Source: Curvularia clavata (taxonomy: Eukaryota). From it: 64,000 bases of DNA. A program made the translations under genes and the position numbers. The stretch is taken from contig CP089275.1 of NCBI GenBank assembly GCA_023920165.1, positions 2,170,001 to 2,234,000 of the forward strand, written 5' to 3'. The notes beneath the pieces are model-generated. The model saw nothing but the letters and a program-made list of their open reading frames with translations. It did not search any database and was not told where the DNA came from. This document shows, piece by piece, positions 46,003 through 50,906 of this stretch (its first letter is position 1; each line of letters opens with the position of its first letter).

Positions 46003-46388
46003 GATGAATGCTGGCATGCGTCTGGCAGTGTATTAGAACAGTGTATATGATGAATTGATACTTCAACATTTGGAATAGTCGCTATCTACTGGTAAGAGTA
46101 TTAGAGGAGATTGTTAGTGCAATGGAAGTTCACCGTGTAGAACAGTCCCTCCCCAATCACATGGAGCCGGTACCTAGGTATTGCATCCGTCCCTTCATGC
46201 TGTCTACAGAATACATACTGGGTGTGTCATGTCAGTGGCAAGGCCCCCACTTAGCTCTGCCCCGCGGCGGGGACCTTTGGTAGCACTAGCCTAGCTGCCT
46301 CCCATGTCGTACCAAACATTTCCAAGGCTCATCAAACTCTCGGGCGGTCCACACTATTTCCTTTTTCACACACAGCTCGCACTCTGAA

Positions 46389-49006
46389 ATGGCTTGCAAA
46401 CACGTCAACTCGCCTGGTTGGTCCTCTTCCCAGCCCGTCCAAGAAGGCAAACACGTAGCAAAAGATCTAAGGTGGCGTGGGCCTGAGTGGTTCGCCCTCC
46501 TCCGCCTTGGATATCATTGTTATGTAGCTTTGGCTCGCATAAAGACTGTGCTAACACATTGTAGAGCTACGGCCCCCAGGCCCTACGCAGTCAGTCTATC
46601 GGGAAGACTGTACCCAGTGCTTCGACTCGATCGACGACCCAACCGGCTTAGACGTGTGCCTTTACTGCTTCAACGGGGGCTGCACAAGCGATCGAAACCA
46701 TGCTCTGCTCCACGTATCCTCTACAACCCACCCGCTCGTCCTCAACATAAAGCGTACGCGAAAGCGGGTTCAGCGCGATGAGCCGCCCCAGAAGATGACC
46801 AAGCTTGCTGTCGCAGCTGAAACCGAATCCGACCGCTACGATACTACAACCCAAATCAAATGCTACGAGTGTAAGATAGATGACGTTGACAGAAGCTCTG
46901 GAAAGCTTCCAGAACTCGTTGACGCAGTCCTCAAGGCGAACACATTTGCCAAACAGCAAGAGGTCAAGGCATGGGAGCAAGAGCTAACAGCTTGCGAGCA
47001 TACACTGTGTCTAGAGCAGAACACGGCACGGCAAATCGAGTCGGAAACGCTAGGTCACTGCTCAGAGTGCGATCTGAAGGAGAACCTATGGCTCTGTCTG
47101 TCATGCGGTAATTTAGGCTGCGGTCGCCAGCAGTTTGGCGGTGTTGGTGGCAACTCACACGGTGTTGGACACACCAAGTCAACTGGCCATCCTGTCGCCG
47201 TCAAGCTTGGGTCCCTCACTGCCGATGGTACAGCCGATATCTATTGCTACGCTTGCGACGAAGAGCGCATTGATCCGGAGCTACCGGACCACTTGGCGCA
47301 CTGGGGCATCAACATCAAGGACAGGGTCAAGACGGAGAAGAGTCTCACTGAAATGCAGGTCGAGCAGAACCTTCGATGGGACTTTGCAATGGTCACCGAG
47401 GACGGCAAAGAGCTACAACCATTGTTTGGGCCAGAATTGACGGGCTTGAAAAACTTGGGCAACAGCTGCTATCTGAACAGCACATTACAGGCACTGTTCG
47501 CTATGCCGGAATTCAAGGAGCGATATTATTTGCCAGATCAAGCACCGCCTAATGCAGCGCTTCCTGCAGAAGATTTGGAAACTCAACTGCGCAAAATCGC
47601 CGATGGAATGATCTCGGGTCGCTATTCGAAGCCCGACACCGATGTTATTACCAACGAGTACAGTTCGGAAATCCCGCACCAACGCGGTCTTGTGCCTGCA
47701 ATGCTGAAGCACTTGATCGGTCGGGGTCATGCCGAGTTCTCGACGATGCGACAACAAGACGCCTTCGAACTACTCCTGCACATGTTCAAGCTTATATCTC
47801 GGTCGCAGCATACCGCACCGCACAAGAACCCTGTAGATGCGTTCCGATTCGCTATGGAACAGCGGTTACAGTGTGTTGGTTGTAAACGTGTGCGGTATAG
47901 GACAGACGAACAAGAGAATATTACGATTCCTGTCCCTGTTCGTAGAATACCAAGAGAGTCCCAAATGGACGTCACAAATGATAGCGGCAAAAACGAAGAG
48001 AAGGAAGAGTTTGAGGCGGTTTCACTAAAGGAATGTCTTGACATATTCACAGGCGAAGAACTGGTCGAGCTTACTTGTAGTGCCTGCGGTAGCAAGGACG
48101 GGTTCACCAAGAGGAACATGTTCAAGACCTTCCCCGCAGTATTGGCAGTAAACGCGTGGCGTTTTAAGGTGGTTAACTGGGTGCCTACCAAGCTGGATGT
48201 ACCTGTCATTGTGGACGACGAGCCACTTTCACTCGATGCCTACAAATCCAAGGGATTAAGCGAAGGTGAAGAACTCCTCCCGGACGATGTTGAGATGGGA
48301 GCAGCCGGAGGATCGTCAGGCAAATGGGTTCCCAATGAGGCAGCACTATCGATGCTCGAAGCCATGGGCTTCCCCAGGGTCAGGTGTGAGAAGGCGCTAC
48401 ATGCCACTGGAAACGAAGATCCTGAAGCAGCATCAAATTGGCTGTTCTCGCATATGGAGGATCCTGACATTGACGATCCTGTTGACTTCAATGCTGGATC
48501 TGGTGGAAGCGCAGCCGCTGCATCCACGATTGACCCCGAGAAGATTGAGAATCTGGGTGCTATGGGCTTCAGTGCCCCCCAGGCACGACAGGCCCTCAAG
48601 GAGACGGGTGGCGATATGGAGCGTGCTGTCGATTGGTTATTCAACCATCCGGATGCAGCCGGTGACTTTGACGAAGGCGGTAGCTCTGATGCACCGGCCG
48701 ATACGACAGAAAAGGTGTTGGCGGGTAGCGATAAGCTGCCTGCGAGCTTTCAGCTGCACTCGATCGTGTGTCATAAGGGAAGCTCAATCCATGCTGGGTA
48801 CGTAGAGTCCAGAAACATCTCCACTAATTCACGTGACCAGCCATTCGCTAATACTTTACAGCCACTATGTCGCGTTCGTTCGCAAGCAGTTGCCAGATGA
48901 GAAGTCAGCATCATGGGTTTTGTTCAACGACGAGAAGGTTGCCAAGGCTGCAGATGTGGAGGAGATGAAGAAGTTTGCCTATGTGTATTTCTTCAGGCGT
49001 TTGTAA
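46389..49006 (+). CDS. UBP14: Ubiquitin C-terminal hydrolase 14 (USP5/isopeptidase T)
   Basis: ZnF-UBP (NLWLCLSCGNLGCGR), Cys box GLKNLGNSCY, QQDAFE, two UBA domains (AMGF) and His box HKGSSIHAGHY spliced across an intron at ~48798-48861. First intron ~46417-46564. Confidence 0.95.
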
Positions 49007-49191
49007 GACAGAGGGTCTAGGTCGTGCATCAGACTAGCTAGCATAGCGGACACGGAGTTGTCCTGGATTGCATTCACAATCATGGCACGGCGAAAAGGAG
49101 CGAGACTTGAGAGAAGCACGGTTCCATGTTTCATGTCGCGATACTGTAGAGCGAAGAGCGTCGATGTGAAAATATGATGGTACAAGTTTCC

Positions 49192-49200
49192 ATCTGATAA
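49192..49200 (+). promoter_or_regulatory. Candidate SreA (iron-responsive GATA repressor) site ATCTGATAA upstream of ISU1
   Basis: Exact match to the ATCWGATAA consensus, about 245 bp upstream of the ISU1 ATG. Confidence 0.55.
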
Positions 49201-49442
49201 GGGCCCTCGATTCCACGGACTGCGCGGAAGCTTTTGGCTGTTGATCCATGCGGTAGGTGTGGGGTAGTTAGCGCACAGATTACGTCGCCGATCACGCTTT
49301 TCCGTACATTACTTCAATTGCCCGTCGCCCATCGAACATCTCCGCCACACCTACACACACATACCAACACTCGCCTGCTACCAACACAAAGGACGAATAC
49401 ACGCCTCTATACGAACAATCCGCGCATATCGAGATCGGCATC

Positions 49443-50233
49443 ATGTTTAGGAGAGTCGCAGCAGCTGTGCCTGCCCAAGCCGGACGAGTACTTGCAACCG
49501 CCGCCAGGCCCAGCATCGCGTCGCCCATCCGCACAGCAGCTCCTGCAGTATCGACAATCGGACAGCGACAATACCACGAGAAAGATAAGTCACTCTTCAT
49601 CTGCCTGGCTTGATGGTGCATTTAGTGGCGATATCGGACATGTCGACCTTCGGACATGTCGACCTATCATTGCGCTAATTTCCTCCGAGCCGAAAGTGTA
49701 TGAGAACACTCAGCTAACATGCGCAGCACTGCTCGATCATTACAATAGGCCACGAAATGTCGGCTCAATGTCAAAGACTGACAGCGACGTCGGCACCGGT
49801 CTAGTCGGCGCACCCGCATGTGGCGATGTCATGAAGCTTCAGATCCGAGTCGACCCCAACAACAACACCATCAGCGATGTCAAGTTCAAGACTTTTGGTT
49901 GCGGTAGCGCGATTGCCAGTTCGAGTTATCTGACCGAGCTGGTACGGGGGATGACATTGGAAGATGCGGCGCGGATCAAGAACACAGAGATTGCAAAGGA
50001 GCTTTGCCTGCCACCTGTAAAGCGTGAGTACCTCCTCGATACAGGAATCATGCTCGATTGAACAATACTGACTGGTTGCAGTGCACTGCTCTATGCTTGC
50101 TGAAGATGCCATCAAGTCCGCCATCTCCAACTACTACACCAAGAACCCCAAGGCACGGCAAACAGACCTCGGCGGCAAGTCAGCGCCATTGCCCAAGGTC
50201 GAGGTCGAGACTGTGTCCTCTGCGGCGGCCTAG
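49443..50233 (+). CDS. ISU1: Mitochondrial Fe-S cluster scaffold Isu1/IscU
   Basis: Arg/Ala-rich presequence, YHEK(V)LDHYNRPRNVGS, GLVGAPACGDVMKLQI, FKTFGCGSAIASSS and LPPVKLHCSMLAEDAI. Exons 49443-49584, 49730-50023 and 50081-50233. Confidence 0.95.
49585..49729 (+). other. Putative non-canonical AT-AC intron (U2-type signals) in ISU1
   Basis: Starts ATAAGT, has branch point GCTAAC at 49713-49718 and ends GCAGCAC. Removal gives AAA G|TG CTC GAT CAT = K-V-L-D-H. Confidence 0.8.
49634..49665 (+). repeat. Perfect 16-bp tandem duplication TCGGACATGTCGACCT x2
   Basis: Read directly: 49634-49649 and 49650-49665. Confidence 0.95.
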
Positions 50234-50906
50234 AAAAGATGTTTACTGTAAATTGACACCGAAAGCATGGAGGGGAACGGGTGGGGATGAAGCAGTCTGA
50301 TATTTCCCAGTATCAGTCTTTCGCTACTCGATGTATCGATTGAGACAGGCGTTTGTGCGTTGGAATCGTGGGCTTCCTGTACAGATCGGCTAAAAGAAAT
50401 ACCTAAATCTATTATCGCAATGAATAAAAACACTTGAAATTCGAGATCTCATAGCGGGGCCCAATTGTGCAGAATGTGATTTAAATGGGAGGGGAAAACG
50501 TTGTTTGTAGATGTTATAAACGACGAAGCTACTTGTAGAGGCTTTACGTGCCAGTGCGCAAATCGGCTTGGAATCGCCCTTGTGAGCTGAGTATCACGCC
50601 ATGTAGGTGCTCCAGATAAGATCGTCCATCTGGTCCTGCATATGTGAGAGTGGCGTGCGGACCTATGACACGTGTTTCCAGGCCGCGGACCGAATGACTC
50701 CATGCTCCTTTTGATGAGAATTCTTCTGGGATGTCGAGGTAGTTTTGATCCTCATCTCAAGGCTTACACCCTGTCAGCGAAATGAGCGCGTGTCTGCCAA
50801 TGACGCTGCAGATCCGACTTCAAGTATTCGCGACCTCGGTCCCTTAACTTGTCGACAACCCCAGGTTGCCATCGCTTCATAACAAACTACTGCACATACC
50901 CCAATC

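Follow-up and report, generated by a model that had tools for sequence, protein, structure and literature searches.

A conserved AT-AC intron with major-spliceosome signals in the ISU1 gene of Curvularia clavata and related fungi

A stretch of 64,000 nucleotides (nt) from the fungus Curvularia clavata (GenBank assembly GCA_023920165.1, contig CP089275.1, positions 2,170,001 to 2,234,000; hereafter the window, numbered from its first letter) contains on its plus strand a three-exon gene, at 49443-50233, which encodes the mitochondrial iron-sulphur (Fe-S) scaffold Isu1/IscU (ISU1) and whose first intron starts with AT and ends with AC. RNA contigs from three separate studies show its precise excision, with 49584 joined to 49730, and the same termini are found at the same site in orthologous loci of other fungi. 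We consider it a natural, old and conserved type II AT-AC intron, meaning one that depends on the major (U2-type) spliceosome, and give this reading a probability of about 0.88. An intron of this kind at 49585..49729 had been proposed in an earlier note, made by a model from the letters of the window alone, and the RNA joint confirms the AT-AC ends given there.

The exon 2 product matches the Pfam family NifU_N with an E value of 7.5e-39 and 133.2 bits, against a curated cut-off of 22; this match, together with the cysteine motifs and the LPPVK motif, places the protein in the IscU/Isu1 family. Besides, four Bipolaris species have Isu1 models that show 100% identity to the exon 2 protein, which points to a Bipolaris-like fungus of the Pleosporales as the source of the window.

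RNA evidence for the AT-AC junction

Exon 1 ends in ...TAC CAC GAG AAA G (49584) and is directly followed by ATAAGT (49585-49590), while at the other end of the intron CTAAC is followed by ATGCGCAGCAC up to 49729 and exon 2 begins at 49730 with TGCTCGATCAT. RNA contigs from four public runs (X4, X8, X14 and X15) were compared with positions 49300-50400, and 31 letters were required on each side of a joint for a contig to count as bridging. X14 and X15 are root metatranscriptomes from separate studies; X8 comes from a third study and bears another organism label. One contig in each of X14 and X15 joins 49584 to 49730, skipping 145 nt with AT..AC ends and an unambiguous cut, and the shorter side of the joint measures 92 nt in the X14 contig and 223 nt in the X15 contig. 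The same joint is found in X8 in a 60-nt junction contig with 30 nt per side, one below the bridging rule. On the 5' side the ISU1 contigs reach back to 49356 in X14 and to 49362 in X15. No alternative junction of intron 1 was seen in the contigs of the four runs, such contigs being known to drop rare variants.

The AT-AC join yields an intact 588-nt open reading frame (ORF) of 195 amino acids which has the universal YHxK-V-LDHY junction in the form YHEKVLDHY, and its product is 96.9% identical to the transcript-derived protein P0018. The outcomes that the earlier note had listed for other ways of handling the intron were all reproduced. Joining AT to AG (49584^49727) gives YHEKALLDHY, with one additional residue; joining the GT at 49589 to the CAG at 49724-49726 puts exon 2 out of frame, and translation ends at codon 56; and retention of the intron gives DKSLFICLA-stop, with a stop at codon 57.

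The unusual termini might have been due to an assembly error, to a mutation restricted to the sequenced strain, or to an mRNA that in reality uses another GT/GC-AG pair. A G-to-A miscall was conceivable before these checks, and nothing was found in favour of any of the three. Unspliced contigs of two other runs, X4 (49300-50012) and X8 (49555-49759), have A49585 and C49729 with no differing letter, and no G at 49585, so that an assembly error is excluded. The three DNA runs with the best match to the window (X1-X3) may be those from which the assembly was made. Concomitantly, three runs, each from a different study, contain the AT..AC joint, AT..AC ends are likewise found in 23 other distinct introns of orthologues (see below), and the other joins break the frame or add a residue that is absent from all of the 275 database proteins inspected. 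We count the artefact explanation as refuted and leave it next to no weight.

Orthologous loci and database proteins

Metagenome contigs were scanned with a pattern in which CTAAC is followed, after 3-25 nt, by the degenerate coding sequence of the exon 2 start, the terminal bases and the 5' end of the intron being left free. The scan returned 49 loci, among which 35 have an exon 1 with YHxK upstream and 12 have no intron but an ATG only some codons before the matched site, and represent bacterial-type iscU or similar genes. The two others are fungal loci for which exon 1 was not found (L031, ending in ..GCAGCAC, and L037, ending in ..GTAGCAC), and they were excluded from the counts. As the earlier note had suggested that orthologues be aligned for AT..AC, it is relevant that 33 of the 35 loci with exon 1 show G/AT....AC/T at the identical site, two show GT....AG (L025 and L034) and none has mixed ends; expressed as distinct introns, the window included, 24 of 26 are AT-AC and two are GT-AG, again without mixed ends.

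The donors of the AT-AC introns are ATAAGT (17), ATATGT (4), ATACGT (2) and ATAGGT (1), plus one ATGAGT. Their last six bases vary widely (CAGCAC, TAGCAC, AGATAC, TTGCAC, TCTTAC, GATTAC, CCTCAC, CTTTAC) around an invariant AC, and thus the CAG that stands upstream of the AC in the window is not required. The distance from CTAAC to exon 2 is 11 nt in 19 of the 24 introns, and in these same 19 an AT stands immediately 3' of CTAAC.

Carriers of the AT-AC form were related to named fungi through the similarity of their products. L048 matches Parastagonospora nodorum at 98.6%, L049 matches Paraphaeosphaeria at 96.6% and L043 matches Lentithecium at 93.8%. Five loci (L013, L021, L022, L029 and L030) are Aureobasidium-like, with L021 and L022 100% identical to protein P0265, while L005, L019 and L046 match Thermoascus thermophilus (Eurotiales) at 87.6%, a figure that includes the fast-evolving presequence. 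The two GT-AG loci are nearest to proteins of Dothideomycetidae (Delphinella, Elsinoe), at 83-85%. Proteins encoded on contigs of about 0.94-0.97 kb, which presumably represent transcripts, are identical to what AT-AC splicing of L005, L048 and L021/L022 yields, and the same holds for P0099, from a 3.8-kb contig, and L001; the AT-AC junction is thus in use in those lineages as well. Going by these similarities, the AT-AC ISU1 intron is common to Pleosporales, Aureobasidium-like and Eurotiales-like fungi, and the AT-AC state would date back at least to the common ancestor of the carrier lineages in Dothideomycetes and Eurotiomycetes, a depth of several hundred million years.

The earlier note had also expected gene callers to mis-model ISU1, and this was borne out by 275 database proteins gathered in three protein searches and sorted by their junction: 198 are correct, 43 read into the intron, 22 lack the upstream YHxK and 12 lack the classifier motif LDHY..PRN, one of the last being in fact correct. 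The 43 comprise 41 models with YH.KD... and two from Blastomyces (YHEKDM...), the G/AT at the donor being read as Asp. An AT-AC intron is beyond the reach of ab initio gene callers, and the models therefore continue into it; many then finish in (S/P/A)LLDHY, the outcome expected if a caller splices at the CAG that precedes the true AC by 3 nt. Among the 22 models without YHxK about 15 are truncated or mis-joined, and the others are bacterial-type or motif variants. No protein has the AT-AG form (0/275), in which YHEK passes directly into ALLDHY and by which orthologues could have contradicted the proposed junction: YH.K is always followed by V or by D read-through.

Read-through models come from many genera. 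Those of Pleosporales belong to Bipolaris (four species), Exserohilum, Alternaria, Stagonosporopsis, Didymella, Macroventuria, Cucurbitaria, Neocucurbitaria, Decorospora, Ophiobolus, Dothidotthia, Aaosphaeria, Clathrospora, Amniculicola, Lophiostoma and P. nodorum (its second annotation), and those of Botryosphaeriales to Botryosphaeria, Phyllosticta and Saccharata. Glonium and Aureobasidium add further cases, as do, in Onygenales, Coccidioides immitis and two Blastomyces species. Correct models include those of all Xylariales as well as Apiospora, both Botrytis, Cudoniella, Tricladium, Ascodesmis and Cladosporium, and some of them bear locus names in an ab initio style, which suggests that these lineages may have a canonical intron at the site or none. 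The public Lentithecium model is correct, yet its match L043 is AT-AC, so that a correct model does not imply a GT-AG intron.

Signals of the major spliceosome

The donor AAG/ATAAGT of intron 1, read directly from the letters, fits the U2-type consensus at all positions except +1. Across the distinct AT-AC introns A is found at +1 in 24/24, T at +2 in 24/24, A at +3 in 23/24, G at +5 in 24/24 and T at +6 in 24/24. The earlier note had placed a standard GCTAAC branch site 11 nt before exon 2; the gap of 11 nt (49719-49729) stands, with the coordinates corrected to 49714-49718 for CTAAC and 49713-49718 for GCTAAC. The presumed branch A at 49717 lies 12 nt from the last base of the intron. Apart from the two terminal bases, the splice signals of intron 1 are U2-type at every position, which agrees with what that note had claimed.

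U12-type introns have the donor /RTATCCTT and the branch site TCCTTAAC, located 10-15 nt from the 3' end. One could accordingly see in intron 1 an AT-AC intron of the minor spliceosome, on account of its AT-AC termini, its phase 1 and the position of the branch A, whose distance from the 3' end is 12 nt for 19 of the 24 distinct introns and thus within the U12 range. The spacing is the only one of the U12 signals that fits. The donor ATATCC and the branch motif are absent from intron 1 and from the orthologous introns: the donors are ATAAGT, ATAGGT, ATATGT, ATACGT and ATGAGT, never ATATCC, and the branch region reads CAGCTAAC and not TCCTTAAC, so that the absence of the U12 donor consensus claimed for intron 1 extends to its orthologues.

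The spacing itself can be judged against intron 2 of the same genes, which provides a lineage-matched reference set of 23 distinct ordinary introns. These have a median length of 57.5 nt, donors that include 13 GTGAGT and 4 GTAAGT, branch sites of the form CTRAY and a branch-to-3' distance of mostly 10-14 nt. The canonical intron 2 has the same spacing, and hence the closeness of the branch site to the 3' end in intron 1 is normal for these fungi and not a U12 trait. Besides, a search of the 64-kb window with Rfam at the gathering threshold returned no family, hence no small nuclear RNA (snRNA) within the window, and a search of 49300-50400 with E values up to 1 returned no match, hence no small nucleolar RNA or other known RNA in the intron. 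Ascomycota, Basidiomycota and Dikarya are reported, in the parts of two sources that were available, to be without minor snRNAs and minor introns (PMC2846911, PMC10639083), in agreement with what the earlier note had stated for Pezizomycotina. Altogether we regard a U12-type intron as very improbable, while the signals read from the letters strongly indicate U2 dependence.

Several points weigh against a U2-type intron that is old and widely conserved. The absence of U11, U12, U4atac and U6atac from the host rests on literature about the fungal group, and the 12-nt branch-to-3' spacing in 19 of 24 introns would suit the U12 optimum as well, though ordinary introns have it likewise. In the metagenome scan CTAAC and its proximity to exon 2 were imposed by the pattern, so that the invariance of CTAAC is no finding; orthologues with CTGAC, possibly enriched in GT-AG introns, lie outside the sample, and 33 of 35 is no estimate of prevalence. 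The taxonomy of the metagenome loci is inferred from the similarity of their joined exon 1 and exon 2 products to named proteins. Finally, the two GT-AG loci show that the barrier to reversion discussed below is crossed occasionally, the two-hit lock being an argument and not a measurement.

Persistence, possible regulation and related introns

Excision of intron 1 by the major spliceosome could proceed as follows. U1 would pair with AAG/AUAAGU, the A at +1 being the one mismatch, and the CUAAC branch site would be bound by U2 through base pairing. The A at +1 would be tolerated in the first catalytic step, while the second step would need a non-Watson-Crick contact between the first and the last base of the intron, in which A at +1 with a terminal C would replace the usual G with G. 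Such a requirement would explain why the CAG three bases upstream is bypassed and the AC used, and the fixed spacing of 11 nt from CTAAC to the AC-bearing end would help the selection of the AC. Reversion to GT-AG takes two changes, and either single change, to AT-AG or to GT-AC, would be expected to cripple the splicing of an essential gene; the AT-AC state would therefore be locked in.

The same lock appears in a different account of the origin of the intron, namely that a U12-type AT-AC intron of early fungi drifted to U2-type signals after Dikarya had lost the minor spliceosome, with its ends kept by the two-hit lock and perhaps serving as a slow-splicing valve on the Isu1 dose. The position of intron 1 is, we presume, that of the boundary between exons 1 and 2 of human ISCU; nothing in the searched literature spoke for an ISCU intron of the U12 type, the search leading only to work on pseudoexons. 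We hold this origin to be improbable, if somewhat less so than present-day U12 splicing; were it true, intron 1 would be a living fossil of U12-to-U2 conversion.

Within the intron, a block GAAC.C.CAG precedes CTAAC, with 18-23 of 24 introns in agreement at each position. It is seen as GAAC.C.CAGCTAACAT at 49701-49720 and at the corresponding position of 23 distinct loci, in AT-AC introns that are otherwise unalignable, and it is missing from both GT-AG introns. Extended pairing with U2 snRNA is one conceivable role of the block. A second element, GTGGC, is invariant in the middle of all ten Pleosporales-type introns compared (the window, L001, L003, L006, L007, L009, L011, L018, L024 and L048), the copy in the window lying at 49627-49634 (GTGGCGAT). 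A consensus structure was sought in these ten introns and none was found. The five Aureobasidium-like introns share a predicted central hairpin of 24 pairs with three compensatory pairs, which may bring the donor and the branch site together. Folding z-scores against shuffled sequences are mostly unremarkable, from +1.6 to -2.1; those of the Aureobasidium-like introns are -3.2 to -3.6 in L013, L029 and L030, -1.3 in L021 and -1.9 in L022.

ISU1 is also crossed by an antisense transcript. A 3724-nt contig of X4 (about 46628-50407) keeps intron 1 and skips 58 nt with CT..AC ends, and since such a skip is a canonical intron on the minus strand, the transcript runs antisense to ISU1. The antisense intron mirrors sense intron 2, in that the sense branch site reversed serves as the antisense donor and the sense donor reversed as the antisense branch site. 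CT-AC junctions of fungi have been explained likewise as antisense introns in the part available of one survey (PMC7072748). Seven further runs with the organism label of X4 contain 0.89-0.90 of the words, a value that would fit the antisense-spliced form.

It is conceivable that, on top of U2-type splicing, intron 1 acts as a valve: with a slow second step, retained transcripts would stop after nine codons and be degraded, which would set the dose of Isu1. A 1083-nt Aureobasidium-like contig, L021, has intron 2 removed exactly (at about 635) and intron 1 (226-341) retained, though it could also be a genome that has lost intron 2 and not a partly spliced mRNA. In X8 an unspliced intron-1 contig (word depth 85) occurs beside the spliced junction contig (237), with none unspliced for intron 2; contig depth is no measure of expression, however, and the unspliced contig may stem from an antisense transcript like that of X4. 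As a proof of sense-strand retention this X8 contig was set aside as ambiguous, given that such a transcript exists. Intron 1 measures 94-164 nt, roughly double the median of 57.5 nt found for intron 2, and it holds the conserved inner blocks GAAC.C.CAG and GTGGC and the Aureobasidium-like hairpin, but the two-hit lock explains conservation equally well. The rescue of A at +1 by a terminal C is described as less efficient in the accessible part of PMC1557818, which would suit the valve. Taken together, regulation of Isu1 by retention is only hinted at, and we rate it as doubtful.

The features are collected in Table 1. Upstream of ISU1 lies a long plus-strand ORF, at about 46290-49006, which ends some 440 nt before the ISU1 ATG; stretches of it resemble zinc-finger, ubiquitin-hydrolase and UBA domains, and by eye it might be a UBP14-type deubiquitinase. 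In the 3' untranslated region of ISU1, two extra A follow 50346 in the contigs of X14, X4 and X8 and not in that of X15, a length polymorphism between strains. An 829-nt high-depth contig of X14 matches the window at 49785-49835 only (51 nt with 3 differences) and diverges beyond, and most likely represents the iscU of another organism, the match being to its conserved stretch that codes for GAPACGD.

Table 1. Coordinates of ISU1, its splice signals and associated introns (positions in the window, or in the named locus)
Feature	Position	Strand	Remarks
ISU1 exon 1, coding part	49443..49584	+	mitochondrial presequence to ...YHEK and first base (G) of Val codon; phase 1
ISU1 intron 1, 145 nt, AT..AC termini	49585..49729	+	removed exactly in RNA contigs; join gives intact 195-residue ORF
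Intron 1 5' splice site ATAAGT, after AAG at the end of exon 1	49585..49590	+	U2-type consensus except A at +1
Intron 1 putative branch-site motif CTAAC	49714..49718	+	presumed branch A 49717; within conserved block GAAC.C.CAGCTAACAT
Skipped CAG, potential 3' splice site in intron 1	49724..49726	+	no RNA joint to 49727; used in orthologue gene models, giving (S/P/A)LLDHY
Intron 1 terminal AC, 3' splice site	49728..49729	+	RNA joint; AC in 24/24 distinct AT-starting introns
ISU1 exon 2, NifU_N core (GAPACGD, FGCGSA, LPPVK)	49730..50023	+	Pfam match, RNA contigs
ISU1 intron 2, 58 nt, canonical GTGAGT..CTGAC..CAG	50024..50081	+	RNA joint 50023^50082 GT..AG in X14, X15, X8
ISU1 exon 3, coding part	50082..50233	+	stop TAG 50231-50233; translation of spliced ORF
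Antisense transcript intron, GTCAGT..TACTCAC..AG	50015..50072	-	X4 joint 50012^50071, CT..AC (cut +2), minus-strand reading
Aureobasidium-like hairpin introns	L013:485-600, L021:226-341, L022:485-600, L029:351-466, L030:351-466		

Introns of this kind are known and very rare. In the portion available of the survey of Sheth et al. 2006 (PMC1557818), type II AT-AC introns are given as proven for SCN4A and SCN5A and as conserved in TAF2 of human and Drosophila, with counts of 15 in human, 6 in mouse, 3 in fly and none in worm or Arabidopsis, and AT-AC introns are 'hypothesized' for xylanase genes of filamentous fungi. ISU1 intron 1 resembles those of SCN4A, SCN5A and TAF2 in its AT-AC ends, its otherwise U2-type donor, its long-conserved borders and its great rarity. 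It differs in that it belongs to a fungal lineage without a minor spliceosome, is short, has CTAAC 11 nt from its 3' end and resides in a single-copy essential Fe-S gene; U2 dependence is experimental for SCN4A and SCN5A and inferred for ISU1.

A second relative is the first-base/last-base suppressor pair, for which the original papers are said to be those of Parker and Siliciano 1993 and others. As the earlier note had stated for yeast, a G-to-A change of the first base is rescued, less efficiently, by a G-to-C change of the last base in yeast and human U2-type introns (PMC1557818, in the part available). The double mutants have the same pair of A at +1 and terminal C as ISU1, a pairing on account of which the upstream CAG would be skipped. 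They are laboratory-made and splice less well, whereas the ISU1 pair is natural, fixed and the sole junction seen in the RNA contigs.

Surveys of Dikarya provide the third comparison. Their accessible portions count AT-AC junctions in two genes of F. graminearum (PMC3577648), at 0.03% in A. niger and others (PMC4084796) and 13 times in Ganoderma lingzhi (PMC11590231), with further counts in PMC7072748. Here too the major spliceosome removes a handful of AT-AC introns, and missing such introns breaks gene models; in the portions available, these surveys name no ISU1 and report no conservation across classes, and a search for a link between the ISU1 orthologue and FGSG_08743 or FGSG_10073, the two F. 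graminearum genes of PMC3577648, found none. U12-type AT-AC introns, finally, share with intron 1 the terminal dinucleotides and a short, fixed branch-to-3' distance, but their donor and branch motifs differ and the host group is, from what is accessible of PMC10639083 and PMC2846911, without a minor spliceosome.

The searchable literature does not name an AT-AC intron of ISU1, though other papers or supplements could hold it. Searches on AT-AC introns in Pezizomycotina, Aspergillus and nodorum returned only generic counts or unrelated strings from polyketide synthase domains (KS-AT-ACP), and for xylanase Sheth 2006 was the sole relevant source found. The kind of intron is known but very rare; ISU1 adds a member to it, of interest for the depth of its conservation across classes and for the scale of the mis-annotation.

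For databases this means that at least 43 public Isu1 models contain residues which do not exist in the protein, placed at its best-conserved N-terminal motif, and that about 15 further models miss this motif or begin too late; it would be advisable for annotation pipelines to permit AT-AC at the site of ISU1 intron 1. Several carriers are pathogens, either of crops (Bipolaris, Alternaria, Parastagonospora, Botryosphaeria) or of humans (Coccidioides, Blastomyces). Few classes of introns are as rare as the U2-type AT-AC introns, and intron 1 of ISU1 is a natural and fixed version of the classic first-base/last-base suppressor pair in an essential single-copy gene. It offers a clean system for how the major spliceosome chooses an AC 3' splice site past a nearby CAG, and for how long a two-hit lock can last.

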